Origin: a bacterium
Lineage (GTDB): Bacteria > Patescibacteriota > Patescibacteriia > UBA1558 > UBA10009
Assembly (NCBI GenBank): GCA_018672055.1
Contig: JABHGM010000001.1
Coordinates: 736,977-800,976 of the forward strand
Direction: 5' to 3'
DNA: 64,000 nucleotides
The position numbers and the translations under genes are program-made. Below the pieces are notes generated by a model that was given only the letters and a program-made list of their open reading frames with translations, had not been told where the DNA came from and did not search any database. Below, piece after piece: positions 2,533 through 36,885 of the stretch (position 1 is its first letter; the number at the start of each line of letters is the position of its first letter).

Positions 2533-2946
2533 TTAATCTAGATCAGGTCTTCCGTTATGTAGTTTTCTTTTATCACTTATCTTATTAATATTCATAAAAT
2601 CAATTATTCTTTGTTTTCTCTCATTCTTTTGTTTTGCTTTGAAATAAATTTCTAAAAATACTATTTTTTGAAAACTAGGAAAATATGCATAAATTACTCG
2701 AATACCACTTTTAGCTCCTCTACCTTTTAAACTCTTACATTGAAACTTTTTAATCTTAAAAAATTGTAACTCATCAGTATTACCAACACCTTGAATTTTA
2801 AAAATACTTCCACTATTAATTTCTTTGCCATGAAATAAATCTATACGATATTTCTTATTTACTTCTAAATCTTCAGTTAATGAAGAAAACTTCTTCATTA
2901 ATTTTTTAATATCTCTGGTAAATTCTTTCGTTTCCTCATATTTCAT
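2533..2946 (-). CDS. RelE/ParE-superfamily-like toxin, the downstream partner of the HTH-Panacea protein.
   Basis: 137 aa. Segment LKGRGAKSGIRVIYAYFPSFQKIVFLEIYFKAKQKNE resembles the RelE/HigB core (LKG...G.R.IY......I.LL.I). Abuts the antitoxin-like gene with a 1-bp gap. Confidence 0.45.
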   Translation of the reverse strand: MKYEETKEFTRDIKKLMKKFSSLTEDLEVNKKYRIDLFHGKEINSGSIFKIQGVGNTDELQFFKIKKFQCKSLKGRGAKSGIRVIYAYFPSFQKIVFLEIYFKAKQKNERKQRIIDFMNINKISDKRKLHNGRPDLD

Positions 2947-2947
2947 C

Positions 2948-3709
2948 CTAGTACTGTCTTACAGAAAATTCATCTGTCCTAGAAAAAACAGCTTCATAAT
3001 CAATAACTTTTAAATTATCTGTACCAATCCATGGTACATCTTTATGGGAGTATTCTTTTATTCTAGTTGCATTAAAATCTTTAAATCTTTCAATTTCCCA
3101 ATCAATAAAATCTTTTTCACGAGCAGTAAAACTTGATAAATCTGCATTTCTGAATGGAAGATACTTTTTTTGATCGTGTTGAAAATATTTATTTACAATA
3201 GCCCCTAAATCACCATCTTTTTCCATTTGTTTAACAATTTTTGTGAAAGCTACTGGTGTTGGACCAAAATGATTTTTTATATACTTAGCGCCTATTAACT
3301 GTTCTTCAAACTTTTCATAATAATCAAAATCAATAAAATACATTAATTTACAAATAACAGCTTCACCAACATTAGAACGAGCGCCAATTCGTTCTAAAAT
3401 ATATAATAATACTTCTTTAAATTTCTCTATTCTTTCTTGTGGTACAGAAATACGCATCTCTGGCTTTGGCTTTACTTTCTTTATAGTTTTAGCAAGTTTT
3501 ACTTTTGGTTCTAAATTTTCTTTACCAGCTAAAAAATCATCTAAAGACAATCCAAAAAATTTAGCAAAAGTTTGTGCTTCTTCAACAAGAAGCTTGCGTT
3601 TACCAGCCTCAATTTGTACATAAGTTGGCCTTGATACACCAATTCTTTTTGCTAAAAAATCCTGACTAATACCTTGTTTTTCTCTAAGTTTTTTTAAAAA
3701 AGTAGTCAT
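2948..3709 (-). CDS. Antitoxin-like protein: N-terminal XRE-family HTH fused to a C-terminal Panacea (DUF4065/SocA-like) domain.
   Basis: N-terminus LREKQGISQDFLAKRIGVSRPTYVQIEAGKR is a Cro/C1-type HTH. C-terminus KLMYFIDFDYYEKFEEQLIGAKYIKNHFGPTPVAF...DGDLG matches the DUF4065/Panacea signature. Confidence 0.55.
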   Translation of the reverse strand: MTTFLKKLREKQGISQDFLAKRIGVSRPTYVQIEAGKRKLLVEEAQTFAKFFGLSLDDFLAGKENLEPKVKLAKTIKKVKPKPEMRISVPQERIEKFKEVLLYILERIGARSNVGEAVICKLMYFIDFDYYEKFEEQLIGAKYIKNHFGPTPVAFTKIVKQMEKDGDLGAIVNKYFQHDQKKYLPFRNADLSSFTAREKDFIDWEIERFKDFNATRIKEYSHKDVPWIGTDNLKVIDYEAVFSRTDEFSVRQY

Positions 3710-3879: not shown

Positions 3880-4167
3880 CTAAAAACTATCCTTTAATTT
3901 CTCTAATAGACTAGGTTTACTTTCAACACACTTATCAATTACATCCAAACATTTTGGACAACTAGATGTCCGTTTTATTTTACAATGATTATCAGCTTCA
4001 CAAGGAGTATAATCTCTATTACTAGGTATTACATTTGCATATCGTTCATTACAAGGTACAAGATTTATTTTATAAATTGTATATCCTATAATAAAAGATA
4101 AAATAGATAATACAATAATTATTAATACAATTTTTCTTTGTTGATAATAAGTAAGTTTACTTGTCAT
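3880..4167 (-). CDS. Small membrane-anchored Cys-rich protein.
   Basis: 95 aa. N-terminal TM (IVLIIIVLSILSFIIGYTIY) then 6 Cys. Preceded by a conserved repeat and an 8-codon uORF overlapping its start (ATGA). Confidence 0.4.
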   Translation of the reverse strand: MTSKLTYYQQRKIVLIIIVLSILSFIIGYTIYKINLVPCNERYANVIPSNRDYTPCEADNHCKIKRTSSCPKCLDVIDKCVESKPSLLEKLKDSF

Positions 4168-4240
4168 ATATTTATATTTACTTCTTTCATTCTTTTAATG
4201 GTTTAAGCTGATTTGATTGGTTTTTTATGGTTTTCTTTTT
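4168..4240. repeat. Conserved intergenic repeat, copy 1 (core TTTAAGCTGATTTGATTGGTTTTTTAT).
   Basis: About 90% identical over ~68 bp to 11723..11795. Core shared with 4562..4607 and 5405..5455. Confidence 0.7.
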
Positions 4241-4279
4241 ACTAATTCTCTATTATTAATTTCTTAAACAATAATAAAA

Positions 4280-4561
4280 TTATCTATCAATAATCCAAGT
4301 AATAATTAATAGTATCAATACTATTGAATACACGGAAATTGCAAAACGCCAATTACCTGCCCAATATAAACCCATAACTGTTTTATCAGGATTTTTTTCT
4401 AAAAATGATTTAACAGAAGGATTAAATTTACTTATAAAACGTTCTCTGCTCATGTTAACTTTATGCATACATCTATTACAAATATTATCCTTATTTAAAT
4501 ACTCATTTAAAACTGATTTATTACAGAGTTCGCATTTTGCTAATTTTGTATTGTCTTTCAT
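4280..4561 (-). CDS. Small zinc-ribbon protein with a C-terminal TM helix.
   Basis: 93 aa. CELCNKS...CNRC motif. C-terminal hydrophobic segment ISVYSIVLILLIITWII. Confidence 0.4.
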   Translation of the reverse strand: MKDNTKLAKCELCNKSVLNEYLNKDNICNRCMHKVNMSRERFISKFNPSVKSFLEKNPDKTVMGLYWAGNWRFAISVYSIVLILLIITWIIDR

Positions 4562-4607
4562 ACTTTTATTCTTTTAGTAGTTTAAGCGGATTTGGTTGGT
4601 TTTTTAT
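4562..4607. repeat. Conserved intergenic repeat, copy 2 (core TTTAAGCGGATTTGGTTGGTTTTTTAT).
   Basis: Exact core match to copy 4. Overlaps the stop codon of 4604..4987 and lies just upstream of the 4561 start. Confidence 0.7.
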
Positions 4608-4987
4608 ATAAAATCCTTTAGTTGATTAGGATTACTTTTTAAGTCTACTAATACTAATTTATCAAAACATTCATTTTTAAGCAATATACGTTTTTCAGCT
4701 TCTAATACATAATCATCAAACCATTTAAACTCTTTTTTAAAGTCTATAGCTTCAGTTTTAAGCATATCCCAATTAGTAGGCTTTATCTTATTTAAATAAA
4801 TAAAACAATTTTTATCTAAAAATTGTTTTAAGTATTCTAATGTATTACTTTCTTCTCCTTTACAATGAGTAGTTAACCAATAACATTCATGATTATCTGT
4901 AACATACTTTAAAAACTCATATACATTCTTTGCAGGCTTTAAATCCTTAGTAATTAATACTTGATCTATATCTAAGTAGATGTTCAT
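4604..4987 (-). CDS. Hypothetical small protein with a possible HAD-like N-terminal DxD motif.
   Basis: 127 aa, begins MNIYLDIDQVLI (hhhDxDxT/V-like). Otherwise unrecognised. Confidence 0.35.
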   Translation of the reverse strand: MNIYLDIDQVLITKDLKPAKNVYEFLKYVTDNHECYWLTTHCKGEESNTLEYLKQFLDKNCFIYLNKIKPTNWDMLKTEAIDFKKEFKWFDDYVLEAEKRILLKNECFDKLVLVDLKSNPNQLKDFI

Positions 4988-5388
4988 ATTAATTCTTTAA
5001 TCTTTTTAATAAATTCATCTCCAAATTTATCTATTTCCATATAATCTTTTCTAACCACATGTTTAACACCTAATTTCTCTACTTCTTCATTGTATTCTAC
5101 ATTAGTTGAGATAGCAATTACATTATTCACATTAAATTTGTTTAAATCTAATACATGGAAAGAACCTCCTAATTTACAATCTTTATCTAATATTATTAAA
5201 TCAAAATTATTCTTTTCTAAGCTATTTACATAATCTTTAACCTGTATATACGTAGAAAACACAGTAACTGAGAAATCAAGAGGTTTAGATGTATTAAATA
5301 ACTCTTCTTCTAGTTTAAATAACCTATCCATAATAATAGATAGGGTCTTTAAATCATCTTCTAATATTAATATGTTTAGAGTTTTCAT
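4984..5388 (-). CDS. Orphan response-regulator receiver (CheY-like) domain protein.
   Basis: 134 aa. ILILEDD acidic pocket, DLIILDKD phospho-acceptor region, conserved K near the C-terminus. No kinase or output domain nearby. Confidence 0.5.
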   Translation of the reverse strand: MKTLNILILEDDLKTLSIIMDRLFKLEEELFNTSKPLDFSVTVFSTYIQVKDYVNSLEKNNFDLIILDKDCKLGGSFHVLDLNKFNVNNVIAISTNVEYNEEVEKLGVKHVVRKDYMEIDKFGDEFIKKIKELI

Positions 5389-5404
5389 ATTATATATTAC
5401 TCTT

Positions 5405-5455
5405 TTACTTTTTTTTCTAAGGTTATATCCGGATTTGGTTGGTTTTTATTTTTAA
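5405..5455. repeat. Conserved intergenic repeat, copy 3 (core CCGGATTTGGTTGGTTTTTAT).
   Basis: Shares the 21-bp core with copies 1, 2 and 4. Lies between the stop of 5482..5832 and the start of 4984..5388. Confidence 0.6.
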
Positions 5456-5481
5456 TCTTGATTTAATTATTCCTGCTGCTT

Positions 5482-5832
5482 TTAACTAAATAACCAAATA
5501 TAAATATTTTTACAATAATCATAATGTTTAATAGTAAAATCTCTTTCATAAATACCTATATAACCTTCACTAGATAAATATATCAATAAAAAGAAAGCAA
5601 CTAAATATAGTAAAGGTACAATATAATATATTATTTTTACATTAATACTATACTTATGTAATTTATAAGCAATAAATGTGCTTATGAATAATAGAACAGT
5701 TTGAAAAAATAATACCCCATTAATAACAGTACAATCCGTATGTTCGTTTATTTTATTAAAAATTAAACTAAATCCATATATAGCTAAAATACCTAACAGA
5801 AATTGTATAATAATTAATAATACCTTTTTCAT
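5482..5832 (-). CDS. Small integral membrane protein (about 3 TM), last gene of the mod-res-nuclease operon.
   Basis: 116 aa, hydrophobic throughout. Starts 4 bp after the nuclease gene. Confidence 0.45.
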   Translation of the reverse strand: MKKVLLIIIQFLLGILAIYGFSLIFNKINEHTDCTVINGVLFFQTVLLFISTFIAYKLHKYSINVKIIYYIVPLLYLVAFFLLIYLSSEGYIGIYERDFTIKHYDYCKNIYIWLFS

Positions 5833-5836
5833 ATAT

Positions 5837-6583
5837 TTAAATAATTTTATTTACTTCATCTCTATACTTACAATAATCACATTCAATACCAGCTTTAGGT
5901 ATACTTTTACTTTTTAAACATGTGTCAGCTTCTATAATCGCTTCATCTACCCAATTATCGTTCCCTTCATATGGTATAAGGGTTACTTCAAACTCTAACT
6001 TAGCATCAAAGGCTTCTTTATCTGTAATACCATTACAATACACAAAATAGCCTGTATTTGAGACTTTAAAGCCACTTTGTCTAAGTAGCCACTGATATAC
6101 TTCCATTTGCCTCTTATATGATATTTGCCAGTCTTGATCTAAAGCTTCAATCTTACCTTCTTTACTAGTAGATTTATAATCTACTACATATAATATACCT
6201 TTTTTATCTACCCAGATATCATCTATAGCGCCAAATATTATTAAACCTGTTTTTTTATGATTAACACGTATTCCTTTAAAATTCTCTCTCCATTCATCCA
6301 TCATATCGTGTTTAAAAGGTACTAAATCTATATTATATGATTTGAGTAATGGATGTACCTTATTCTTAGCTCTATGTATATCAAATTCTTTTTTGAGTAA
6401 AGTATCTACTGCACTATTTAAATTAAAAGGATAACCTGGAGGTCTTTTAATTCCAAGCTTATTATCTAAATAAAAGCATTTAGGACATTCAATAAATAAA
6501 TCTATTTTAGATCTAGATAATTTCCATTGACTTCCTTTATAATTCCATTCTGCTTTTCTTGGGATGTTATAGTATTGGGACAT
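5837..6583 (-). CDS. Standalone Cas4/RecB-family PD-(D/E)xK nuclease with a putative 4-Cys Fe-S cluster.
   Basis: Motifs GAIDDIWVD (motif I), VVDYKST (DYK, motif II), RQMEVYQWLL (QhxxY, motif III). N-terminal CPKC plus C-terminal C...CDYC. 1-bp gap after res. Confidence 0.6.
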   Translation of the reverse strand: MSQYYNIPRKAEWNYKGSQWKLSRSKIDLFIECPKCFYLDNKLGIKRPPGYPFNLNSAVDTLLKKEFDIHRAKNKVHPLLKSYNIDLVPFKHDMMDEWRENFKGIRVNHKKTGLIIFGAIDDIWVDKKGILYVVDYKSTSKEGKIEALDQDWQISYKRQMEVYQWLLRQSGFKVSNTGYFVYCNGITDKEAFDAKLEFEVTLIPYEGNDNWVDEAIIEADTCLKSKSIPKAGIECDYCKYRDEVNKII

Positions 6584-6584
6584 G

Positions 6585-9503
6585 TTATATTAATTTACCC
6601 TTAGCATTTGCTTCTGTAACTTTAGCTAATTCACAAATTTCACTTATTGAAGCATTGTTATCTTTTAGTCCATAAAAATGATTTTGACCTAACAAAATAT
6701 ATATCCATTTTCTTTCCATTCTATCTTTTGGATTTAATTTATTTATCCTTTTAACCCAATCAAGTGTTGCTAATTGTTTTTGTTTAACATTCAAATCATT
6801 TAAATCTTTATCCGATTTTGTTTCAATCAAATAAATTTTTTCTTTTGTTTTCACTATGAAATCTGGATAATATAATGATAATAAGCCGTCAGTTCTAATA
6901 TAAGTTATATGTGCGAATGGATGACGATATTCATCAATTTTTATAAAACTTTCAACTTTTGAATCTCCGTCGATATATTCAATAAAATCTTTTTCAAGAC
7001 CTCCTTTATTTGATGGAAATGGTAGTCTTTCATAAATACTTTTAGCTACCTTTAAAGAAAAGCTTTCTCTCATTTTCATTTCCGTAATTTCTGAAAAATT
7101 TTGTTTTCTTACAATCCCTTCGCTAGATTCTATGCTACTCTGCATTTCAAAAATTAGTTTTCCAACTTCTTTTACAATATGCTGAGTAACGATTCCATTT
7201 TTTAATAAGAGAACTTTCCAATTACTGCCATCAAATGGATCAAACCTTTTACCAAACAATTTTGTTCTAATATATTTATCAATAGTTTTTACTAAGTTTA
7301 TATTGTTTATTTGCATAGTAGGAAAAGCTCTAGCAGCTTTTCTACCAATACGTCCCATCCTATTCACTACTGTATTTAAAACTTTTTCTAAATATTCATT
7401 ATAACTTTGTGAATTGAATAAATTTGCATTTACTATATAATCACCAAATCTTGTTTTTACAGTAACCTCTTCTGAAAAAAATGATTCACCATCTTTTTTA
7501 AAAAATTGTTGCAGCTGTTCTAATTTAAAAGCCTCAAATTTTTCTAATTTATCTAGTTTCAAATCTGTAGATTTTAACTCCTCATCTGAATCTTTAACTA
7601 TATATGGCCAAAACAAATCATATTTTTCATAACCATCTTTAAGTTTAACTTTTATTAAATCTCCAACTACATCTGAACCAGAAGTAATTTCTACATTAGA
7701 CTCACCAATCAAACCTTCTGCTAAGAGATCGTCATAAAATTGAACAAAAGATGGATGTTCAATAATCGATAATATATCTAAATAATTAGTTGGCTCCTGT
7801 TTATCTAATAATAATTTTTTTCGATTCTCATTTTTAATATCCTGAAATTCTGGATCCCTCCACATCAAACGTAAACCTCTTCCAATTGTTTGCTCTAATA
7901 ATATTGGTGCATCAGAAGCTCTTAAAGGTACTATTACACATATATTATTCACATCAAAACCTTCTCTAAGCATCAAAACAGAAACTACTACTCTAGGATT
8001 TTTATGTTTATCCATATTAAACAGCCTTTGTTTAATATCAAACCATTCTTTTTCTGGCACTTCACCTTTTTTATTAGAGTCAATTTGCATGACCTCTTCT
8101 ACTTTTAATCCTTCTTGAATTAAAAATTCTGTTACTAAAGGTGTAACTTTAGTATCCTCGCACATTACCATCATTTTAGGATGCTTATTACTCTCTCCTT
8201 TTTCATCCCCAAAAAATTCTACAAAATGTTTTTCTAACTTGTTCAATTTTTTTAATCCAGCTCTTAACATTAATCTTTGACCATCTGATAAATCTATGGG
8301 TTTATTACCCTCTCTTATAGCTTTAAATTCTAATGGTAATTCTGCAATCTCCTTTCTTTTATCAATTGCTATAATTTTTACCATTCCTTTTTGAATTGCT
8401 GTTTTTAATTCAAAATCAACAATAATATAAGGAAAAAAATGTTTTGTTCTTTTTTGCCCACTTCCGGTAGTATCATAGGGCGTTGCAGAAAAATCGACTT
8501 GCATCATCTTTTTCTCTTTTCCAGCTGTAATTTGATTTAAACTTTTCTGCCATTCTACTTCTTGTATTTCTCCATAACTTTTATTTTCATGAATATGATG
8601 AGCTTCATCATTCATAATTACTAAATCATCTAAATCTACTAAATACTCTAACTCTTTACCTCTAGCATAAGCAGCATCTAAAGCTCTTAAATCATTGCCA
8701 GTTGCTTTTCCTGGGCTTATTGGCATAATGTCACGAATTATAGAACTTGGATTTTCTAATGGACTATTTAATTCTTCATCTAATTTTTCTTTTTCTAAAA
8801 ATAAATGCCAATTAGTAATACCTATCATTCCATCACCTGTAACTTTTGTTCCAATTTCCTCCTTCTTAGCTACACTACCTTGAATAAAACCAAATAACTC
8901 ATCTCTATAACTTGGTGGTATAAAAACATCTTGAAATAAATAAAAATCAGATTTCTCAAATTCTCTTTCACCTTTATTATTTTCTTTTCCTAAAAATGCA
9001 TCTAATAGTCTCTCGTAAACTATTAATCCAGGTGCAACCAAAAGAAAATTCTTTGAATATCTATTAGTTTTTTCTTCCTCATATTTAGCGTTTAAGTATT
9101 GCCAAATCATTAAAGCGTGCATAACCCAAGTTTTACCCGTACCTGTAGCCATCTTAATGGCATATTTGGGAATTTCATATTTTGGTTTTTTTAATTCTAC
9201 TGAATTAATTTCTAACAGCAATTCTGAATTAATATTCTGATATATATCTACCACTGATGTAGTTTTTAAAATTTCATGAAGGTAAATCACATTCAAAATT
9301 GCTTGCTTCTGACCTTCGTGAAAATTTATTTTACGAGTATCAATATGTGGCTCCTTAAACCAAAAATTTAAAAGATCTTTAGTAATAGGAGAAACCTTCG
9401 ATATAATTTCCCCGCTATCCCAAAATCCTAAAACTACTTCAGTTATATTTTTAGCTAATTTTAATGGAATATCTCGCGTTCCTATATTTAATGGTGTTGG
9501 CAT
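6585..9503 (-). CDS. res: Type III restriction endonuclease Res subunit (SF2 DEAH helicase plus C-terminal PD-ExK endonuclease).
   Basis: Walker A MATGTGKT, DEAH box (IMNDEAHHI). C-terminal YYPDF...IYLIETK endonuclease motif. Lies directly downstream of mod, the Type III arrangement. Confidence 0.8.
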   Translation of the reverse strand: MPTPLNIGTRDIPLKLAKNITEVVLGFWDSGEIISKVSPITKDLLNFWFKEPHIDTRKINFHEGQKQAILNVIYLHEILKTTSVVDIYQNINSELLLEINSVELKKPKYEIPKYAIKMATGTGKTWVMHALMIWQYLNAKYEEEKTNRYSKNFLLVAPGLIVYERLLDAFLGKENNKGEREFEKSDFYLFQDVFIPPSYRDELFGFIQGSVAKKEEIGTKVTGDGMIGITNWHLFLEKEKLDEELNSPLENPSSIIRDIMPISPGKATGNDLRALDAAYARGKELEYLVDLDDLVIMNDEAHHIHENKSYGEIQEVEWQKSLNQITAGKEKKMMQVDFSATPYDTTGSGQKRTKHFFPYIIVDFELKTAIQKGMVKIIAIDKRKEIAELPLEFKAIREGNKPIDLSDGQRLMLRAGLKKLNKLEKHFVEFFGDEKGESNKHPKMMVMCEDTKVTPLVTEFLIQEGLKVEEVMQIDSNKKGEVPEKEWFDIKQRLFNMDKHKNPRVVVSVLMLREGFDVNNICVIVPLRASDAPILLEQTIGRGLRLMWRDPEFQDIKNENRKKLLLDKQEPTNYLDILSIIEHPSFVQFYDDLLAEGLIGESNVEITSGSDVVGDLIKVKLKDGYEKYDLFWPYIVKDSDEELKSTDLKLDKLEKFEAFKLEQLQQFFKKDGESFFSEEVTVKTRFGDYIVNANLFNSQSYNEYLEKVLNTVVNRMGRIGRKAARAFPTMQINNINLVKTIDKYIRTKLFGKRFDPFDGSNWKVLLLKNGIVTQHIVKEVGKLIFEMQSSIESSEGIVRKQNFSEITEMKMRESFSLKVAKSIYERLPFPSNKGGLEKDFIEYIDGDSKVESFIKIDEYRHPFAHITYIRTDGLLSLYYPDFIVKTKEKIYLIETKSDKDLNDLNVKQKQLATLDWVKRINKLNPKDRMERKWIYILLGQNHFYGLKDNNASISEICELAKVTEANAKGKLI

Positions 9504-9514
9504 ATAATTTTGAT

Positions 9515-11095
9515 TTATAATTCTTCTATTACAATGCTTTCAAAACCAAAAACATCTACTGCTTTAACACATACTTTTCTTTTTGATTTTTTAGGCACTC
9601 TTAATGTAGTTTTTTTTATTACATGATATGGATCATTATCATTCTCTATATTTTCTCTATAATCTTGCCATTTGCTCCTAAATGTTTTACCGTCATAATC
9701 TGGATCAATACTCCAATATTCAATAAGGCTTAAAGGATCGCTAGATATAATTTCTTGTAGCTTCTCTTTGTCTTTATCGTCTAATGGTATATTGTCTGGG
9801 GACAACAAAACATAATTTTCTAATTCAATATTTATAACCTCCTCGTCCTTTTTACCCCCTACTTCTAATTGAATAGGTTTTATAGTTAAATATTGTAACG
9901 ATGAAAATCTAACTTTTCCACTATCAACTAGCTTATCATAACCTTTCTTACTTTTTAGTGTGTCTAATAAATCTGGAGGAATTACTAAAACCTCTAATTT
10001 ATCATCATTTAAGCTTTGAATAGCTTGAGTAATATCATAAGTAAAATTCCAGCCTAAAACTATGACCTTTTTCCACCCGCCCATAAATGAATTACGTAAT
10101 TCCATAGCTTTTTGTAAAGTATTTAAGCCAGTTAATTTATTAGGAGAATCAACAAAAATCAAAGTTTTAGAATCCTTGATATAACCTATATTCCTAATAT
10201 AACTATCTTCATCTTTAAAGGGAATTGCACCATACAATTGCAAAACTACATGAGATAAATCACCTATTCTTTTATATAATTTTGAAGAGGCTAAAACTTC
10301 CTTTTGATAATCTCCTATAGATTGATATAAAAATGGTTTTGTATCTTCGTCAATAAATCTTTTTCTAGAAATTAAATTAGCTGGCTTCCCTATATCAGAT
10401 ATAATCCACCTTCTATTTAATTTTTCAGAAACCGAACCTATAGTTCCAGAACCTGCAAAAAAATCAGCAACAATAGAATTTTCATTCGAAGATGATTCTA
10501 TTATCCGTTGAATAAGTGATTCTGGTTTTTGAGTTTTATAGTTTTTATTTTCAGAACTCATTGGATTAAGCATACTAACATACCATACATCTCCAACTCT
10601 CCTGCCTTTGAACTCCGCTATAATATCATCTTCAACTGGCTCTCTATCGTGTAATTTTATAAACTTTTTCAAATAAGGTTTAAATTTTCCATCATCATAA
10701 GGTGCATTATTTGCAAATATTTTACCATCTTTAATATAATTCTCCCATCTTTTTATTACACCACTATCTGTTCTTTCTTTTTCATAAAGAATATTAAAAA
10801 TAGCATTTTGACTTTTTGTATAATAAAAAATCATCTGACTTCTTTTTGGAAAATTATTTTCACTTTCCACCCACGACCCTTGATATTCCCAAGTAATATG
10901 TGATCCAAAATTATTTTTACCAAAAATATCATCCAACAATAATTTTACATAGTGACCAACATGCCAATCTATATGTACATATATGGATCCTTTGTCTGAT
11001 AATAATTCTTTCATTAAAGCAAGTCTAGGATACAACATTTTAAGATATGAGACCGTCCCTTCTCTCCAGGTATCAGAATATGCAAATTGTTCCAT
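9515..11095 (-). CDS. mod: Type III N6-adenine DNA methyltransferase Mod, C-terminal portion. In frame with 11108..11476 but separated from it by a TAG stop.
   Basis: [62 protein letters not shown] parallels the region after DPPY in Type III Mod proteins. Later FAGSGT (SAM-binding motif I). Confidence 0.75.
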
Positions 11096-11107
11096 AGTAG
11101 TAGGTTT

Positions 11108-11476
11108 CTACTCCAAATCTTTTCCTTTTAATTTAATCTTGATTCTATAATCAGCTTTAGAATCGAACGGTGGATCAATATATATAAGATCTATCTTGCC
11201 TCTTAAAGAATCTAAATTACTAGCTGGATCACCAGCTAGTAAAGCTTGGATTACTAGTAAATTATCTCCATAAATTAAACGATTAATCCAATCGACTTCT
11301 GATTCCTCAGGCATTCTCCCACTAAACAAACCAGCGGAGTCCTTAGCTGGTAAAACCAATTCATTTGTTTGTAATGTAAGTTTGCTTTTACTAGATAACC
11401 TTTCTAATATCTGTTCTACCTCTTTTTTACCCTCTTTTACGATCTTTGGTAATTCTTCTATTAAAGATTTTGTCAT
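11108..11476 (-). pseudogene. mod: Type III Mod, N-terminal portion ending right after catalytic motif IV (DPPF). An in-frame TAG at 11108-11110 separates it from the rest of mod.
   Basis: IDLIYIDPPFDSKADY (DPPF motif). Same reading frame as 9515..11095, with only 4 codons between the TAG and the downstream ATG. Confidence 0.65.
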
Positions 11477-11537
11477 ATAATATAAATTTATTTATTTACT
11501 CTTATTTTTCCACTTTTTACCTAAGTTGTCAATAAAA

Positions 11538-11566
11538 ACAGAGTTTTACTCTGTTTTTATATTATA
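11538..11566 (-). terminator. Intrinsic terminator after the 813-aa gene. A probable mod promoter (TTGACA) follows on the minus strand.
   Basis: AAAAACAGAGTTTTACTCTGTTTTT hairpin with a T-run on the minus strand. Confidence 0.45.
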
Positions 11567-25075: not shown

Positions 25076-28000
25076 TTAGTTAAGTACTCTAGTAACGTCT
25101 AAAGTCTTAATCTTATAACCATTGTACCAATCAGCTGAACTTGAATCATCAGCAGTAATATCGGCATGGGTATTATTACCATTAGTACCGGTATTATCTG
25201 ACCAAATCATATAAGCTGCAGCATCAGTAGTACCACTAGCATCATCAGTTAAACAGAATTTGCCAGGTACACCACTAACACCAGTTGCATCACAATGAGC
25301 TGTGATGTAATTATAGGCTGTGGTTGAAGAATCACCATCATTCAAGTACATACTAATAGAGTCACTACTGGAAGCTCCAGTATTAACATTACCAGCTGTT
25401 GCTTTTAAGATGAAATACTTACTAGAACCAGCACTGATTAATCTATCATCATTAAAGACAACGATTACATCATGAGAAGTTGAAGAAGTATTACCAGCAT
25501 AGTTTTGATAAACAACACCAGTTGAAGCACTTAATTTACCACCTGTACCAGTACCATTAGCAGTTGTAGTTGTTACACCATAACCGTTATAGACTTGGTA
25601 ACCATCAGTTGCAGTATCACTTTGTGTTAAGACAGTAGCAGCACTATAACTTGAACCTTCATAAACTTGGAAGTTTGTAAGACTCAAGGTAGATGTAGTT
25701 TGAACTGAATCAGTAAGACTTAACTTAAATGATAATTTCTTCAAGCTTAATGCAGTACCACCTTCAGGAGCGCTAACTTGGAATCTGTATAATTCGGCAG
25801 GACCATTAATTAAACTTGCATTTGTAGTATTATCAGCAGTAAATGTTGGTACTGTACCCATTACAGTCATAACGCTACCAGCTCTATCAGTTGTATCAGA
25901 TGGAGCAGTTAGGCTAGTACTTCCAGAATCAGCACTCTTAGCTTCAAAGTTAGCATCACTATCAAAGTTAGCATAAATTTCATCACCAGAATAAGTAGCA
26001 TTAGTTTGATTGATAGCAGGAATATTGAAGTATACATTCATTATTCTATATGTATTAGCTGGGATATAGAATGGATTTGTTGTGATATTGAAGTCAGCGT
26101 TACCACTAATTTCAACATTATTTGCAGTTATAGTTTCACCAGCTTCATTCATGTAACCAATAGTAACTGAATCTACAGCTCTATTACCATCAGCTTGTAA
26201 CTGTTGGATTCTAACCTTATTAAGGTTGAATGCTTCGTTAACAGCTTGAAACTTAAGGTTAAGCATAGGTACATCAGAAGTACCAGCAACTACATTAGCA
26301 ATTGAAGGGTTACTTTCGGTAGTAACATTCAAAGTACCTGCATCAGAAATAAGAACGTAATAAGAACTGGCTACTAATGTAGCAGAACCATTACCATCAG
26401 CAATAGCCCAAGCAGTACCATCATTATCAGTTAAAGTAACATCTGTACCTGTGTCATCATTAATTGATACACCGGCAGCAGTAGCTACATTAATCTTTAC
26501 AGTCTTATTAACTGAACATCCATTTGTATAAGCAGTATTAACTGTATCACCAACAACTCTCATGACATGAGTCTCACCACCTGGAATAGTCCAATTAACA
26601 TTGGAGAAGGTTGCTGCACCTGTAGCAGATGCAAAACTTTCGATGGTTGAATTTAGATTATTAGTCATGTCTGGATCAGCAGTAATATCATACAATGCTA
26701 GAGATGAAATTAGGTTGTTAACAGTTGTATAAACAGCTGCACCACAATCTTGACGTCTTACGACAACATTAGTGGTGTCAGTACCAACATAACCATATAA
26801 AGTTAAGCCAGTTATTGTCATATCTGAACCTGAACCTGCGTTGAAAGCAAATTCACCTAAATTAACATCTTCTGTACCTTGAACTACTGTAACACCAGCA
26901 GCATTACTAGCTAGGGCAATACCTAGAGAAGCAGCTGCTACTGTCATATCATTACCTGTAGTATGAGTAGTAGGGACAATATCAGTAATCCATTGGTTAT
27001 TATCAGTATTCTTAATACCATCAGTTGTATTAATGGTATAAGTACTTCCTGTACTACCTAAAGTAGCATAGTAATTACCGGTTGTACTTAAACTTACGTT
27101 TAAGTCAGCAACTACTTTGAAAGTTCTGGTTTGACCAGCATCAAAATTAAAGTAATCAGTATAGTCATAATAAATACCAGCATCTGATCCACTAATTTCA
27201 GTGAAAGTACCACAATCAACACCTGATGTTGAATCACCATTATCTACGTCAACGATCTTAACGTTAGAAATATAATTACTAGAAGTATCACAAGCAGTAT
27301 CATCATCATCAGTATCTAAGTCAGTAGAATCATTATGTAATTCAAGTCTTAACTTACGTAATTCAGCATTAACACCAGAAGTAATTGAAAAGTTTAATAA
27401 TTCTACTTCTGTACCACCTCTAGCAACAGTTGATGATTGAGGTCCATTTTTAGCAACAGTAATTTGACCACCTTGAACAGTTAAGGTTGTTGTATCAGCA
27501 TCACCACTAACACCATCATAATCACCTGAAGTTACACCAGCACCATAACCATAGAATGAACCTACAGCTAATAGATCGGATGTATTTTCTAAGTAGATCT
27601 TAGTAGTATCACCGTTTCTAGAATCACCACTTATATCACCATAAATCTTAAAAATACGATTTGTATTTTTTTCTAAGATAAATGGACTATCACTTAAATC
27701 AAACACAACTAAACTGTTACTTGTAATACCACTAACAGTACCAAGCAAATCTGCGCCTTGATAAAGCTCTAAATCAGTAATATAAGTACTATTAATACTA
27801 CCAGCTTGATATAGAGTAATTCTACTAATTTCAAGATTTTCAGCAGAACCAGCAGTTAACTTGAATTGAGCAATTTGTGCATTTTGTTGAGCTACAGTTG
27901 GGTTTGCAAGAGTACCATTTTTTGCAATGGTAATTGTACCTGCAACACTTGAACCCAATGTTAATGTGTTACTAACTAATGGAAATGAACCATTAATAGC

Positions 28001-29131
28001 AGCATCAGAACTAACATCATCACTACCTACTTCAAAATAACTAAAGTTACCAGCAGTAGCTGAATTTAAATCAGCAACTAAAGAAACAACCTTAGTTGTA
28101 CCTGCTGGTACATTAAAGTCTAGGTTAATAAATGTAGCTTTATGAGTAGAGCTATTTATAGACTTACCTGAGGTTAGTCTTGTAGCACCATCATAAATAT
28201 ATAAGTTGGAGAAATCACCAGTTGCACCAACACCTCTTCTGGTGAAGGTTAAACCGTCAAGATCAACAGCACCATCAGAAGAAGCAGTTACATTAATTTT
28301 CATTAAAGTAACACCAGTTGCTGATAATGGACCAACTTGTGCGCCAGGATTATCTGAAGCTAAAGCAACAGTTAAACCTGAACCACCAACTACTGTACCA
28401 GGATCGGTAGCACCAGTTGCTGGGTTTGCTAAAGCATCTTCTGTAGCTGTTACAGAAGTACCGTCGCTATATGCTGATAAATCAGTTACAGCAATAACAT
28501 AATCAGCATTAAAACGATTACCAGTCATACCTGCATCTGTTACAGGTCTCTTGGAATCGCCATCAATATAATATACTTGATCATCCATTTGAACCAAAGT
28601 ACCACTTGGGTAAGTTGATGCAGCAGTTAAAGCAGCGCCTGTTGCGCTATAACCACCTGCTAAGTAAGTAGGTACTGCGAAAATCATTGATTCCCAGTTA
28701 GCACCATACAAAGCAACAGCAGCTTCGGCTGAGTCAAGTTTGTGTAATAAACCATCAACAGCAACGCCATAAACTTCAGGAGTATTAGCAGTCAAAAATT
28801 GACTACCATCACTTGAAATTTCAACATACTGTAATAGTTTAGCACCAGGTCTTACGGTAACAGAAGCACCTAAAGTGTAAGAAGTCATTTCATCTTGAGC
28901 AACTGTGACGACATCGCCAAAGTCTTCATACCAAGACATAAATTCTCTTTCACTTGGAAAAGGATGCTTGAAACCGTCAGCGTCTAAATAATAGACAGCT
29001 GTATAACCTTCGGTTTTAATTAGATCTCCAGCTGAAGCAACGTTTTCGGCAGCAACAGGTGTAAAAGCTACACCCATTAAACCAATAACGGCAACCATGG
29101 AGATCAAGAAAGCTTTCTTGATTAAATTCAT
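25076..29131 (-). CDS. Giant secreted T/S/G/A/N/D-rich cell-surface protein. S-layer-like glycoprotein candidate.
   Basis: 1351 aa. Signal peptide MNLIKKAFLISMVAVIGLMGVAFTPVAAEN. Very Thr/Ser/Gly-rich and low in charge. Local GC is higher than its surroundings. Good RBS AAGGAAA. Dedicated strong terminator. Confidence 0.55.
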   Translation of the reverse strand: MNLIKKAFLISMVAVIGLMGVAFTPVAAENVASAGDLIKTEGYTAVYYLDADGFKHPFPSEREFMSWYEDFGDVVTVAQDEMTSYTLGASVTVRPGAKLLQYVEISSDGSQFLTANTPEVYGVAVDGLLHKLDSAEAAVALYGANWESMIFAVPTYLAGGYSATGAALTAASTYPSGTLVQMDDQVYYIDGDSKRPVTDAGMTGNRFNADYVIAVTDLSAYSDGTSVTATEDALANPATGATDPGTVVGGSGLTVALASDNPGAQVGPLSATGVTLMKINVTASSDGAVDLDGLTFTRRGVGATGDFSNLYIYDGATRLTSGKSINSSTHKATFINLDFNVPAGTTKVVSLVADLNSATAGNFSYFEVGSDDVSSDAAINGSFPLVSNTLTLGSSVAGTITIAKNGTLANPTVAQQNAQIAQFKLTAGSAENLEISRITLYQAGSINSTYITDLELYQGADLLGTVSGITSNSLVVFDLSDSPFILEKNTNRIFKIYGDISGDSRNGDTTKIYLENTSDLLAVGSFYGYGAGVTSGDYDGVSGDADTTTLTVQGGQITVAKNGPQSSTVARGGTEVELLNFSITSGVNAELRKLRLELHNDSTDLDTDDDDTACDTSSNYISNVKIVDVDNGDSTSGVDCGTFTEISGSDAGIYYDYTDYFNFDAGQTRTFKVVADLNVSLSTTGNYYATLGSTGSTYTINTTDGIKNTDNNQWITDIVPTTHTTGNDMTVAAASLGIALASNAAGVTVVQGTEDVNLGEFAFNAGSGSDMTITGLTLYGYVGTDTTNVVVRRQDCGAAVYTTVNNLISSLALYDITADPDMTNNLNSTIESFASATGAATFSNVNWTIPGGETHVMRVVGDTVNTAYTNGCSVNKTVKINVATAAGVSINDDTGTDVTLTDNDGTAWAIADGNGSATLVASSYYVLISDAGTLNVTTESNPSIANVVAGTSDVPMLNLKFQAVNEAFNLNKVRIQQLQADGNRAVDSVTIGYMNEAGETITANNVEISGNADFNITTNPFYIPANTYRIMNVYFNIPAINQTNATYSGDEIYANFDSDANFEAKSADSGSTSLTAPSDTTDRAGSVMTVMGTVPTFTADNTTNASLINGPAELYRFQVSAPEGGTALSLKKLSFKLSLTDSVQTTSTLSLTNFQVYEGSSYSAATVLTQSDTATDGYQVYNGYGVTTTTANGTGTGGKLSASTGVVYQNYAGNTSSTSHDVIVVFNDDRLISAGSSKYFILKATAGNVNTGASSSDSISMYLNDGDSSTTAYNYITAHCDATGVSGVPGKFCLTDDASGTTDAAAYMIWSDNTGTNGNNTHADITADDSSSADWYNGYKIKTLDVTRVLN

Positions 29132-34095: not shown

Positions 34096-36885
34096 ATGAG
34101 AAATCTTTTTGTCTTACTCATAGTTAATATTGGCCTGATGTTTGGAACAGAATGGTATGTAGATGTAAATGCCTCTAGCAGTACTGAGGTCGGTACTGAA
34201 GAAAATCCATTTCTTACAATTCAAGATGGACTTGACGCATGTTCTGCTGATGATGAAGTCTCTGTTTCCGATGGTACTTACGATGAAAATCTAGCATGGC
34301 CATCTGTTGATGGAATTCAATTAATTGGTAACCCATCGGATGCTAGCGCTGTAATAATTGACGGTGATCTAGGGCATAATAGTGTTATTCAATTTAATTT
34401 TGAATCTGCAGGAACTATTACTAATTCAACATTATTAGATGGATTTACATTAATTAATGGTTTTGGTGTTCAAGGTGCTCAATCCGGAAATGGACATTAT
34501 TACTATGGTGCTGGAGTATATATAAAATATGCAAATCCAGTATTAAATCATATTAATATGAGTGACACAGACACTACTACTGAACCTGCTGACAGAATAT
34601 ATGGTGGTATATATTGTTTGAATTCTACTGTTGTAATAAATAACTTAGAGTCTTCAAATAATGGCGGTATAGTACAACATCATAATGGAACTACACTGTA
34701 TGCTGATAATTCCAACGTAACTATGTCTGATGTTATAATGACAGATAACTTTGGCTACTATGATATTAAAGGAACAGATGGTTCAAACATTACTTTAATT
34801 AATATTGAAGGAACTAATCACTCCAATACTTATAGTACTTCTGTAATAAATATCTATGATGAATCTAGTCTTAATATTACTTCTGGTTCATTCCATGACA
34901 ATGATTTTATAAATAATTCTAGTTCAGTTATAAGCTCATACAACTCTGATTTTACTCTTACTGATGTATTGATAGAAGATAATACTTGTGCTCCAGGTTA
35001 TGATTGTAGCGTCATTCAGGTGAATGATAATGATGAAATCGAAAGAACACAAAATCTTGTTAATGTTAATATAAAAAATAGTGATAACTTTGAATTTCTT
35101 ATGTGGATTGATGCTGATGAAGTAAATATAACAAACTGTGAAATAACTGAAAATGATATGACAATTGCTGCAATAATTTCTATATCTATAAACACGCTGA
35201 ATATTGTTAATTCTACTATAGCAGGTAATAATTCTGGTTATGGAATATACCAAACGTCTGGAGGAACTATTACATTAACTAACTCAATACTTGATAATAT
35301 TAATAGTGGTTATGAAATTAAGCTTAGAAATTTCGATGACCCATTGAGCATATTAATTGCTGATTACAATCTAGTAGAAAATGGTGAATTAGCTATTGAA
35401 ACATGGGGAGATTCTTGGGCAACTGAACCGGTGACTTCCTGGGGAAGTCATAATATTGAAGATGAAGGTCCTGAATTTGTTGGATATTTAACTGGTAACT
35501 ATGATTTAACTCCAGAATCACCTTGCATTGATACAGCAGATCCTAATCTTGATGGCGATGCTTTTGCCTGGAATGAGGATGAAGATGATCAAGATCCAGA
35601 TGGTACAAGAATGGATATGGGTAGTAATTACCTTCATCAAGATTTCCAAGAAATAACTTCCATAGTTGATGCTCCTGGAACTCCAAATGATGAAGTAGTT
35701 ATTAATTGGAATAAACATTCAAGTGATCAAGTATCCTATCCAGGTGTTCATCACTACACTGTTTGGAGATATCTGCCAGATGGTAGAGGCTGGGATGAAT
35801 TAGATGATACTAATGCTTCTGGCTCTACTTCATACTCAGATTTTGCTCCAACATTCTATGATCCTGCAGTTGGTAATGACTTTACTCTTTATAAAGTACT
35901 TGCTTACAGATATGAATCTGGTTGGCCTTTCTGGGAGAGTGAAACTATGTATGGTACATCAGATGGTGCAAAAGGTGATATTGATTTTAATCAAGCTGTT
36001 GATGTAGTAGATCTGGTAATGATGGTTGCATTTATCCTAGAAACAAATACTCCTAATAATTATGAAGCATGGGCTGGTGACTTGAATGATGATGATGCAA
36101 TTGATGTTCTTGATATTGTAATGGCTGTTACGCTAATTCTAGATGAAACCATGATTGAAGATGATGGTGGATCTACTATTGTTGAAAGAATCATTAAACC
36201 AAAGAGTGGTAATCCTCCATATGAAATGCAAGTTAATATGACAACTACAGCTGTAGTTCCCGGTATTCAACAAGAGATACAAATTGATGCTGGTTACAAA
36301 GCAACAGCAGTTTATGCTGGAAGCTATGCAACATCTGCAGATATGGTACTCGCCTATTCATTATCAACTGATGGTTACACTGTTAAATATTTGTACTATG
36401 GTCCAGATGGAGAAGAATTTCCAATTGGTAATGGTAGAATATTGAATATTGATTTAATCTATGAAGGAGTAAGTAGGAATAACTTTATTCTAATCGATTC
36501 AGAAACTACTTCTGAGCTACTTGTAGCTGGTCGTGGTGGTCATGAAAAAGAAAGTTATGAAGTACCTCATGATGAATTTGTTAGGTTAGTTAATGAACAG
36601 GAATTAAGTATTATCACTCCTAATAAATATACACTGTTTCCTGCCTATCCTAATCCATTTAATCCAGAAACTACTATTTCCTATCAATTACCTCAAAATG
36701 ATGAGGTTAGCGTAATAATTTACGATATGATGGGAAGAGAAGTTACTGAATTAGTTAATGGACATCAAGTATCTGGATATCATCAGATACAATGGAATGC
36801 AAAGAATATATCATCTGGTATATACTTTGTTAAAATGATTGCTGGTAACAATATCAGTAATCAAAAAATTATCTTATTAAAATAA
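34096..36885 (+). CDS. Large secreted right-handed beta-helix (pectate-lyase-fold-like) protein with two dockerin-like Ca-binding repeats and a T9SS-type C-terminal sorting (Por_Secre_tail-like) domain.
   Basis: Signal peptide. Repetitive N/T/G-rich beta-helix segments. GDIDFNQAVDVVDLVMMVAF and GDLNDDDAIDVLDIVMAVTL (dockerin repeats). C-terminal NPFNPETTISYQLPQ...SGIYFVKMIAG... Confidence 0.55.
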   Translation: MRNLFVLLIVNIGLMFGTEWYVDVNASSSTEVGTEENPFLTIQDGLDACSADDEVSVSDGTYDENLAWPSVDGIQLIGNPSDASAVIIDGDLGHNSVIQFNFESAGTITNSTLLDGFTLINGFGVQGAQSGNGHYYYGAGVYIKYANPVLNHINMSDTDTTTEPADRIYGGIYCLNSTVVINNLESSNNGGIVQHHNGTTLYADNSNVTMSDVIMTDNFGYYDIKGTDGSNITLINIEGTNHSNTYSTSVINIYDESSLNITSGSFHDNDFINNSSSVISSYNSDFTLTDVLIEDNTCAPGYDCSVIQVNDNDEIERTQNLVNVNIKNSDNFEFLMWIDADEVNITNCEITENDMTIAAIISISINTLNIVNSTIAGNNSGYGIYQTSGGTITLTNSILDNINSGYEIKLRNFDDPLSILIADYNLVENGELAIETWGDSWATEPVTSWGSHNIEDEGPEFVGYLTGNYDLTPESPCIDTADPNLDGDAFAWNEDEDDQDPDGTRMDMGSNYLHQDFQEITSIVDAPGTPNDEVVINWNKHSSDQVSYPGVHHYTVWRYLPDGRGWDELDDTNASGSTSYSDFAPTFYDPAVGNDFTLYKVLAYRYESGWPFWESETMYGTSDGAKGDIDFNQAVDVVDLVMMVAFILETNTPNNYEAWAGDLNDDDAIDVLDIVMAVTLILDETMIEDDGGSTIVERIIKPKSGNPPYEMQVNMTTTAVVPGIQQEIQIDAGYKATAVYAGSYATSADMVLAYSLSTDGYTVKYLYYGPDGEEFPIGNGRILNIDLIYEGVSRNNFILIDSETTSELLVAGRGGHEKESYEVPHDEFVRLVNEQELSIITPNKYTLFPAYPNPFNPETTISYQLPQNDEVSVIIYDMMGREVTELVNGHQVSGYHQIQWNAKNISSGIYFVKMIAGNNISNQKIILLK

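Follow-up and report, generated by a model that had tools for sequence, protein, structure and literature searches.

A single in-frame TAG in the mod gene of a Type III-like restriction-modification locus from a clonal Patescibacteria-like population

In the Type III enzymes EcoP1I and EcoP15I, Res needs Mod for recognition, cleavage is ATP dependent and involves two inversely oriented sites, and methylation is placed on one strand (PMC3874151). The amount of Res in the cell is positively regulated by Mod, and mutagenesis of EcoP1 yielded only r-m- or r-m+ phenotypes, apart from one lethal r+m- class (PMC3874151). In that class, c2, the mutant Mod proteins fail to bind SAM and the cells are r+ in vivo (PMC3874151), which means that their Mod evidently still supported restriction. 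Many Type III systems are furthermore phase variable, an indication that loss of their expression is not lethal (PMC1557822).

Here, we describe a Type III-like locus in which mod is interrupted by one TAG codon and res is intact. A preliminary description had placed the break just past motif IV, and sequence, translation, and homology all bear this out. It had also held that a broken mod beside an intact res would be lethal unless res was inactive, an expectation that does not hold for Type III systems (PMC3874151, PMC1557822). By analogy with these systems, a null mod should be viable.

The interrupted mod gene and its neighbors

Judged from its sequence, the locus appears to be Type III in character (Table 1). 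Read on the minus strand, mod runs ATG(11476)...GAT TTG GAG TAG(11110-11108) AAA CCT ACT ACT ATG(11095-11093)...TAA(9517-9515). The joined frame has 654 codons and exactly one internal stop, which leaves two ORFs in the same frame: 11108..11476 (122 aa), whose product ends in ...IDLIYIDPPFDSKADYRIKIKLKGKDLE, and 9515..11095 (526 aa). The stop falls at residue 123, inside the methyltransferase domain and 19 residues past the catalytic DPPF, which is absent from the C-terminal ORF. Although the TAG is a single event and not a statistical pattern, the pair of ORFs is more than a chance arrangement because there is homology on both sides of the stop. A 55-aa plus-strand ORF that overlaps the stop (10983..11150) was judged to be a chance antisense ORF of the coding region.

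Table 1. Features of the locus, numbered within the window (the whole 64-kb stretch of DNA that was analyzed)
Feature	Coordinates	Strand	Description
PD-(D/E)XK (Cas4-like) accessory gene	5837..6583	-	Directly downstream of res; Pfam PDDEXK_1 (E 1.3e-12); PADLOC Cas4 models
res	6585..9503	-	972 aa, intact; starts 11 nt past the mod stop codon
mod C-terminal ORF	9515..11095	-	526 codons + TAA; post-IV motifs, target-recognition region, motif I, C-terminal domain
Linker	11096..11107	-	Four sense codons (KPTT) between TAG and next ATG; homologous to conserved ...QKPT(V/T)(I/M)EQFAY... segment
In-frame TAG	11108..11110	-	Codon 123 of mod, derived from Gln codon CAG; seen in sequence and translation
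mod N-terminal fragment	11111..11476	-	122 codons; helical region at the N terminus plus motif IV (DPPF, residues 101-104)
Promoter-like site	11504..11532	-	TTGACA-17-AAAAAT with TG before second hexamer; 28 nt upstream of mod ATG; consensus match only
Palindromic hairpin	11532..11560		Flanked by T/A runs; terminator-like; between upstream 813-aa gene and mod

When the two pieces are joined, Mod behaves as one protein in domain searches. The Pfam model N6_N4_Mtase gives an unbroken match to residues 95-364 of joined Mod (E 1.4e-42) and also matches the 526-codon ORF (E 1.6e-39), while the PADLOC model MTase_III matches joined Mod with an E value of 1.2e-74. DPPF lies ahead of FFAGSG (motif I, residues 340-345). 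The variable target-recognition region covers residues ~200-320 and is hypervariable in an identity profile against the closest relative (L086): identity to this nearest allele is 17-40% in the central region and 80-100% elsewhere. Among solved Type III Mod proteins, phmmer matched Mbo45V (1.5e-15), EcoP15I (7.6e-13), and 6k0w (4.3e-10). A Foldseek search with the model of a 73%-identical relative (P0002) retrieved 6k0w (3.7e-20) and 4zcf_A (7.3e-20) over ~600 aligned columns, with low TM-scores (0.34-0.42) from a model of only moderate quality (pLDDT 73.5). The stop position itself falls in a predicted flexible loop, with pLDDT below 50 over residues 114-131 in the model of the closest relative, and gaps at this position in the alignment of homologues mark the loop as indel tolerant.

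Res retains the motifs of an SF2 helicase (GTGKT, NDEAHH, SAT, and GRGLR) and, near its C terminus, YyPDF...ETK, a PD...ETK nuclease motif. It matches Pfam ResIII (E 4e-15) and Helicase_C as well as PADLOC REase_III (E 2e-26), can be aligned end to end (1-971/972) with homologues from ~80 loci, and keeps all 203 of the 203 columns conserved at ≥97%. Matches to the nuclease region (residues ~820-910) were sub-threshold for RE_endonuc (21.3 bits versus a cut-off of 23.4) and TnsA-like models, and scores against NCBIfam models were below their cut-offs. There was no sequence match to Res in the PDB, and a fold search with a model of pLDDT 68 did not retrieve EcoP15I Res.

The order mod then res (here, mod stop codon, 9515-9517; res ATG, 9503) was found in all of the ~80 loci long enough to show it, as well as in L086 and L087. 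These last two also carry the PD-(D/E)XK gene (60% identity), which was not detected in the ~80 other loci. From its distribution in these sequences, it appears to be an accessory gene that is common only to the closest relative and stands outside the family core. Promoter-like sites are not enriched in the region, with 32 found versus 42 expected. One weak site of this kind (11206-11177) was considered as an internal promoter for the C-terminal piece and set aside, in a region where such sites are rarer than expected by chance.

Ancestry and distribution of the stop codon

As the preliminary description had proposed, we looked for a sense codon at this position in homologous mod genes. Among 82 other loci, 45 have CAA and 27 have CAG, so that Gln occupies the position in 72; the remaining 10 have other sense codons, and none has TAG. 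CAG is the codon in the closest relatives, L086 and L087. Because Gln is conserved in 72 of the 82 loci and the nearest relative has CAG, the stop is a CAG-to-TAG (C-to-T) transition. At the protein level, more than 100 full-length homologues with 60-73% identity read through the site as ...DLEQKPT..., and ...EQKP... occurs in nearly all of ~119 protein homologues. Over the corresponding stretch, the 122-aa piece and the closest full-length relative share 93% identity. Neither at this site nor elsewhere in mod was a stop or split found in the homologous loci (0/82). A scan of a genome contig collection supplied 80 of the comparison loci; its best match was 64% identical, and the source species with this system is absent from that collection.

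The TAG is not confined to one assembly. It occurs in five other independent ENA assemblies (L001, L002, L083, L168, and L171), whose DNA is 99.95-100% identical to the window, and the assemblies that share it derive from at least three sets of samples. In protein collections, 162 blocks and 92 contigs carry the exact 122-aa product; for the 526-aa piece, exact copies were found in 120 blocks. The split allele is on 66-92 contigs. NCBI annotations of metagenome-assembled genomes (MAGs) show the identical two-ORF split. Among the top 120 Mod matches from one search of a collection drawn from ~15 billion proteins, none was a full-length allele of this lineage; all others among the 120 covered 98-100% of the query at no more than 73% identity. 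In a metagenome contig collection, a search for the exact pattern with NNN at the codon gave 0 matches, and a protein scan returned only relatives with ≤68% identity. Since the lineage is absent from that collection, it provides no allele count.

Two variant proteins in the public data were set aside. P0127 (190 aa, containing ...KDLEQKPTT...) was a candidate CAG variant, but the DNA of its contig, L083, has TAG; we rejected it as an artefact of a gene caller that had applied a TAG=Q model to a short contig. The 123-aa variant P0126 ends in ...KLKDRKSVV; its two contigs each terminate with the Illumina adapter AGATCGGAAGAGCGTCGTGTAGGGAAAG, which identifies it as an adapter chimera.

Variation within the population is very low. 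Across 7 contigs, there were 7 differences in 68.6 kb, or about 1 per 10 kb (~1e-4 per site), a number that gives dN/dS within the population no power. The DNA changes in mod and res comprise two to three nonsynonymous (one of the changes lying 4 nt from a contig end) versus one synonymous, while flanking genes have two changes, neither of which alters the protein. This excess is a weak hint of relaxed constraint. At the protein level only, a K-to-R change in the N-terminal piece is also recorded (P0128). Codons 390-396 of res show microheterogeneity, and a contig breaks there. Mod retains 177 of 180 near-invariant residues, which is within the normal spread of the family. Because the population is too clonal for a second lesion to be expected, the intact remainder of the gene is uninformative as to whether mod is dead or alive.

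Probable loss of function and competing explanations

A conserved Gln has given way to a stop that every sampled copy of the organism carries and that is unique to this lineage; mod is otherwise undamaged, as is all of res. We consider it probable that this is a genuine CAG-to-TAG nonsense mutation at codon 123 of mod, within a Type III-like operon of mod, res, and the accessory PD-(D/E)XK gene, and that the system is off. The best reading is a young loss-of-function mutation that became fixed in a very clonal Patescibacteria-like population. In that case, ribosomes would terminate after 122 residues, and the resulting fragment would retain just 28 residues from the start of the methyltransferase domain, without the SAM-binding motif I or the target-recognition region. 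A product reinitiated from the ATG 12 nt downstream would be without the catalytic DPPF. Between this truncation and a DPPF-less reinitiation product, no active Mod would be made. Since Mod recognizes the DNA site and stabilizes Res in Type III enzymes, Res would be expected to be inert too. The cell would be r-m-, a state harmless to it that leaves the system nonfunctional. The mutation would be young relative to the mutation rate, such that a second lesion would not yet be expected. As a counterpoint, there is no decay besides the TAG, and a still-functional gene would look alike.

It is possible, but in our view unlikely, that mod still functions at a reduced level. Near-cognate tRNA-Gln could read through the UAG, or the reinitiated 526-aa piece could pair with the 122-aa piece as a two-part methylase, with the stop acting as a throttle. 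Near-cognate misreading of UAG typically inserts Gln, and the stop here stands for Gln, so that readthrough would restore wild-type Mod. An A after the stop is a relatively leaky context in E. coli suppression studies, and A is the base that follows the stop in mod. Splitting the protein in a low-confidence, indel-tolerant loop may be tolerable. Reinitiation is plausible because an ATG lies 12 nt downstream and Shine-Dalgarno sites are rarely used in this genome (6 of 62 genes). The intact remainder of mod, the intact res, and fixation of the allele in all samples also fit with retained function. However, at ~1e-4 differences per site a dead gene is expected to be intact as well, and programmed readthrough would be expected to leave the stop conserved in relatives, of which none has a stop or split (0/82 loci; the other top-120 matches are full length). 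Nor is there RNA structure 3' of the stop: the 121-nt segment around it had a z score of +1.14, and 175 of 200 shuffles folded at least as well. A DPPF-less piece that bound DNA and Res would, moreover, resemble the lethal c2 class, which argues against a C-terminal piece that is active alone. More doubtful still is the stronger version, in which the TAG is a maintained leaky stop that holds Mod at a very low level, through rare Gln insertion or a two-piece Mod, and thereby throttles the Type III system.

Polymorphism of the gene also seems improbable. In this scenario, a CAG (ON) allele coexists with the TAG allele but is too rare to be assembled, and mod is a slowly switching or strain-variable defense gene. 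Restriction-modification genes are commonly strain variable, metagenome assemblers report the majority allele only, and the microheterogeneity in res, with its contig break, lies nearby. Yet the five other assemblies contain the TAG allele only, and against the 66-92 contigs with the split allele stands no full-length lineage allele among the listed protein matches. For the population variant raised in the preliminary description, no sense allele was found in public data; P0127, the sole apparent Q allele, traces to a contig with TAG in its DNA. Phase variation, another suggestion made there, lacks a repeat tract that could drive switching. The stop neither overlaps nor adjoins a tandem repeat; homopolymers reach at most 7-8 nt (A or T) and lie elsewhere, and repeats of 2- to 6-nt units in at least four copies are limited to four dinucleotide runs of the (AT)4 or (TC)4 type.

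We regard it as highly improbable that the organism or a mobile element decodes TAG as Gln, through a suppressor tRNA or a changed code, which would leave mod unbroken. The alignment of TAG with Gln, the low G+C content (~28%), and the choice of a TAG=Q model by a public gene caller for one short contig would all suit such a code. However, the mod TAG is the only in-frame TAG among ~62 genes, in agreement with the preliminary description, which had seen no TAG recoding in the window. Of the 64 ORFs with 100 aa or more, 7 terminate in TAG. TAG ends five other real genes, each with another stop 2-22 codons later, and only in mod is it followed by a long open frame (530 codons). The single tRNA gene in the 64-kb window is tRNA-Glu(CTC), and known bacterial stop-codon reassignments all involve UGA (PMC8629427). 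Pyrrolysine was set aside, given that Gln is the aligned residue and that genes here normally use TAG as a terminator. Finally, an assembly or sequencing error, also raised in the preliminary description, has nothing in its favor beyond the prior probability of such errors and is effectively refuted by the identical base in five other assemblies from at least three sample sets and by the same split in NCBI MAG annotations.

Annotation and comparison with known systems

The mutation is an ordinary event that most likely merely turns the system off, and it has little importance other than for accurate annotation. Databases should treat the pair of ORFs as a single entry, a mod pseudogene or disrupted mod from a Type III-like system, and should avoid labels such as "hypothetical protein" and "partial methyltransferase" for the pieces. 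Censuses of defense systems in this organism should score the system as probably inactive. For a Type III system, there is nothing paradoxical in a broken mod beside an intact res. At least one TAG-as-Gln translation is present in public protein sets; it stems from an alternative-code model on a short contig and might be taken for a sense allele or for evidence of recoding. Where a population is so clonal, freedom from further damage does not tell whether a gene is dead or alive. Should the improbable leaky-stop reading hold, it would represent a new way of tuning a restriction system, a translational dimmer in a Patescibacteria-like bacterium that has a small genome and, ahead of most of its genes, no Shine-Dalgarno site.

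The locus resembles classical Type III systems such as EcoP1I, EcoP15I, and Mbo45V in having mod followed by res on one strand, here with an 11-nt spacer. The sizes are also similar, with a Mod of ~650 aa (EcoP15I Mod has 644 aa in its PDB entry) and a Res of 972 aa. Mod has the features of a beta-class N6-adenine methylase, with DPPF before FxGxG and a variable central recognition region, and in both sequence and fold it comes closest to solved Type III Mod structures; at the motif level, Res combines SF2 helicase motifs with a C-terminal PD..ExK. In contrast to the classical systems, Mod here is only ~18-20% identical to the solved Mod proteins, Res has no PDB sequence match, an extra PD-(D/E)XK gene follows res, and mod is interrupted.

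As in the phasevarions of Haemophilus, Neisseria, and Helicobacter, a premature stop would turn mod off while res stays and the cell survives (PMC1557822), and the sharply divergent central region of mod resembles their hypervariable recognition region. Their switching, however, reflects reversible slippage in repeat tracts, with both ON and OFF states seen, whereas here there is a point mutation and no ON allele was found. The EcoP1 c2 mutants (r+m-) likewise have a mod lesion beside an intact res, but c2 Mod fails to bind SAM and the cells are r+ in vivo and hence inviable (PMC3874151). Here, Mod is cut before its recognition and SAM-binding parts, so that an r-m- phenotype is expected. The naturally split DNA methyltransferases M.AquI and M.EcoHK31I, in which a two-gene arrangement is the normal form, share with this locus a methylase domain carried by two consecutive ORFs. 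Unlike theirs, the arrangement described here is shared by none of 82 relatives, and the break lies a single substitution from an intact ancestor.

An in-frame stop codon in mod

The mod frame comprises 654 codons and, in both sequence and translation, contains exactly one internal stop, which is codon 123. The DPPF motif occupies residues 101-104 of the joined protein. With an X inserted at the stop, the Pfam N6_N4_Mtase domain spans joined residues 95-364 unbroken (E = 1.4e-42), and the PADLOC Type III methyltransferase model matches at 1.2e-74. The preliminary description had reported two same-frame ORFs split by one TAG just past DPPF, in a methylase gene of the Type III kind next to an intact res. 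Our coordinates and lengths agree, as do the domain and profile matches and the end-to-end alignment of Res.

Features of the mod-res locus and its surroundings, with positions in the window
Feature	Position	Strand	Details
mod, stop context	11476->9515	-	ATG(11476)...GAT TTG GAG TAG(11110-11108) AAA CCT ACT ACT ATG(11095)...TAA(9517-9515)
mod N-terminal ORF	11108..11476	-	122 aa
mod C-terminal ORF	9515..11095	-	526 aa
Low-identity Mod block	10100-10500	-	joined residues ~200-320; from comparison with L086
res		-	11-nt spacer after mod; 972 aa; Pfam ResIII + Helicase_C; PADLOC REase_III 2e-26
PD-(D/E)XK (Cas4-like) gene	5837-6583	-	248 aa; starts 1 nt past res stop codon
HTH_3 + SocA/Panacea antitoxin gene, then adjoining ORF	2533-3709	-	253 aa; 137 aa, no family match

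A search of a large protein collection with the joined Mod returned thousands of matches. The best 120, which we inspected, were 60-73% identical to the query and covered 98-100% of it, except for the window's own 526-aa product. Almost all carried the site consensus ...(D/N)(L/I)(E/Q)QKPT(V/T)(I/M)EQFAY.DTW. At the DNA level, we compared 82 homologous loci from bacteria and archaea outside this lineage. As the preliminary description had proposed to check, homologous mod genes have a sense codon opposite the TAG: all 82 do, 72 of them CAA (n = 45) or CAG (n = 27) and 10 another sense codon. No stop was found at this position, or anywhere within mod or res, in these 82 loci. The loci of the closest relatives (L086 and L087) have CAG at the site, and their N-terminal Mod and Res are 93% and 88% identical to those of the window. 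Together, the Gln codon in most homologues and the CAG in L086 and L087 identify the TAG as a single C-to-T transition in a conserved Gln codon.

Probable loss of function and its expected consequence for the cell

We consider it probable that the stop has simply abolished mod function. TAG aside, Mod departs from the family consensus in 3 of 180 near-invariant columns and Res in none of 203; when the cut-off is relaxed slightly to 96% and the window's own row is counted in, the figures are 3/204 and 1/227, both inside the family's normal spread. Deviations this few could mean that selection still acts on both genes. The population diverges by about 1e-4 differences per site, and because it is so clonal, no second lesion would be expected even in a recently killed 5-kb operon. 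DNA differences within the population (two to three nonsynonymous versus one synonymous in mod and res, none versus two in flanking genes) are far too few to serve as evidence; one K-to-R variant in mod was seen at the protein level only. In res, P390P, F393V, and I396V cluster in codons 390-396 (window 8318-8334), coinciding with the end of contig L002, a pattern suggesting that some samples contain a second haplotype of res.

A residual, leaky function of mod is improbable, although several features make it conceivable. The lost residue is Gln, and the stop lies in a loop of variable length among homologues, modelled with pLDDT <50 at residues 114-131. Moreover, an ATG follows 12 nt after the stop, and Shine-Dalgarno-like motifs are rare in this genome, standing at normal spacing before only 6 of the 62 gene starts in the window. 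Against such leakiness, none of 82 relatives shares the stop or the split, and readthrough-type RNA structure is lacking: a 121-nt segment spanning the stop is no more stably folded than its shuffled counterparts (z = +1.14).

In Type II systems, a broken methylase combined with an intact nuclease is lethal. The preliminary description expected the same of this locus unless res were inactive, an expectation that does not hold for Type III systems, as EcoP1 mutants and phase-variable systems attest. In EcoP1, mutagenesis gave rise to r-m- and r-m+ phenotypes only, while the lethal r+m- class (c2) consists of mod mutant proteins that cannot bind SAM yet remain r+ in vivo; the amount of Res is positively regulated by Mod, probably through Res folding and protection from proteolysis (PMC3874151). 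Phase variation is common among Type III systems, indicating that cells survive when these are not expressed (PMC1557822). Here, the 122-aa product would have neither recognition region nor SAM-binding motif, and the 526-aa product, if reinitiated, would lack DPPF. With neither piece complete, family knowledge leads us to expect an r-m- phenotype, in which the cell would be viable and devoid of this defence system.

Polymorphism, recoding, and artefact

Unassembled polymorphism, recoding, and artefact jointly receive only the small remainder of our confidence. The TAG is genuine and, judged by public data, fixed, since it is present in all five retrieved contigs covering the site (L001, L002, L083, L168, and L171) and no full-length Mod allele of this lineage occurs among the best 120 protein matches. 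These five contigs also dispose of assembly error, an alternative raised earlier. Exact-sequence look-ups place the 122-aa piece in 162 collection blocks, representing 92 contigs; for the 526-aa piece, the numbers are 120 blocks and 66 contigs, the longest of 963 kb. In all, DNA of seven contigs besides the window's own was retrieved from several ENA analyses, the five above among them; it matched the window at 99.95-100% identity, with 7 differences over 68.6 kb. NCBI MAG annotations have the identical split, labelled "hypothetical protein" and "partial" methyltransferase. The lineage was absent from the JGI metagenome collection in two scans, and the source species from a GTDB genome scan.

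A population-variant allele, also suggested earlier, finds no full-length listed example, and the sole apparent Gln is encoded by TAG. That protein, P0127, was rejected as a sense allele because its 803-bp ENA contig (L083) has TAG at the DNA level; the gene call rendered it as Gln, consistent with a code-15-type model having been picked for a short contig. Entries of this sort mimic a sense allele and could mislead searches for recoding or population variants. A second protein, P0126, was rejected because its end is translated Illumina adapter. Contigs L169 and L170, from different samples, end in 28 bases of adapter (AGATCGGAAGAGCGTCGTGTAGGGAAAG), joined at AAAAG, 15 nt before the TAG, which yields a spurious 123-aa protein. 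P0126 serves as the representative of its protein cluster.

Among its ~62 genes, the window has no further in-frame TAG and, as the preliminary description had seen, no recoding signal. Its ORFs of at least 100 aa end in TAA (48), TGA (9), or TAG (7). Five other real genes terminate in TAG with another stop 2-22 codons on, and only the mod TAG precedes a long open frame (530 codons). The one tRNA in the window is tRNA-Glu(CTC). Known bacterial stop-codon reassignments all involve UGA (PMC8629427). The suggested phase-variable allele lacks its hallmark, as no simple-sequence repeat was found near the stop.

The locus, its neighbourhood, and known systems

Homologues of Res are uniformly ~970-973 aa, and the window Res aligns with them end to end. 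Of the columns conserved at 97% or more among 131 homologues, it retains all 203, among them the motifs GTGKT, NDEAHH, SAT, and GRGLR and, toward the C-terminus, the nuclease motif YyPDF...ETK; Pfam matches to the nuclease domain are present, all below threshold. Mod has sequence matches to the solved Type III Mod subunits Mbo45V, EcoP15I, and 6k0w, and a model of P0002, a full-length relative 73% identical to Mod, matches them by fold. A fold search with a mediocre Res model did not retrieve EcoP15I Res, so the Res side of the putative Type III assignment draws on motifs, profile matches, and gene order. The order mod then res is kept in all ~80 genomic loci. We infer an uncharacterised Type III-like R-M system.

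Compared with L086, Res is 88% identical throughout and Mod 80-100%, except for a central ~120 residues at 17-40%. This block looks like a target-recognition domain swap, which would imply a recognition sequence different from that of L086.

In L086 and L087, a 60%-identical copy of the PD-(D/E)XK gene also follows res, with an additional 150-aa gene in between, and none was detected in the other ~80 loci with mod and res; its product may serve this sub-lineage as an accessory nuclease. The R-M locus is flanked on one side by a polysaccharide-synthesis cluster and on the other by small unknown genes and the Panacea-domain antitoxin, which probably forms a toxin-antitoxin pair with the adjoining 137-aa gene. 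The region from ~2.5 to 11.5 kb (toxin-antitoxin candidate, small unknown ORFs at 3880-5832, and R-M genes) resembles a small defence island next to the polysaccharide locus. A different genomic context in the closest relative shows that the R-M system is mobile.

The host is a cellular bacterium of low G+C content (~28%) whose RsmH most resembles those of Patescibacteria/CPR. With so few Shine-Dalgarno-like starts, initiation seems largely independent of such sites; some of it may occur on leaderless transcripts. Most starts in the window are preceded by plain A/T-rich sequence, some with TATAAT-like hexamers only ~10 nt upstream. A 929-aa protein (34096-36885, plus strand) has a C-terminal Por_Secre_tail, the domain that sorts proteins for type IX secretion (44.9 bits; cut-off, 27); Patescibacteria/CPR are not known for such secretion. 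A 1351-aa ORF without Pfam match (25076-29131, minus strand) lies where the G+C content of the window is highest (0.33-0.35 versus ~0.28).

The central block of Mod resembles the target-recognition domain swaps described in Type III mod alleles of Haemophilus and Neisseria (PMC1557822). At the sequence level, the locus resembles classical Type III R-M systems, except that mod is not intact. It differs from phasevarions, having neither a repeat tract nor an observed ON allele, and its split, unique against 82 relatives, is unlike that of natural two-gene methylases. A nonsense mutation silencing mod is an event well known in kind, and the locus is a damaged mod copy, itself not characterised before, within the known Type III kind.
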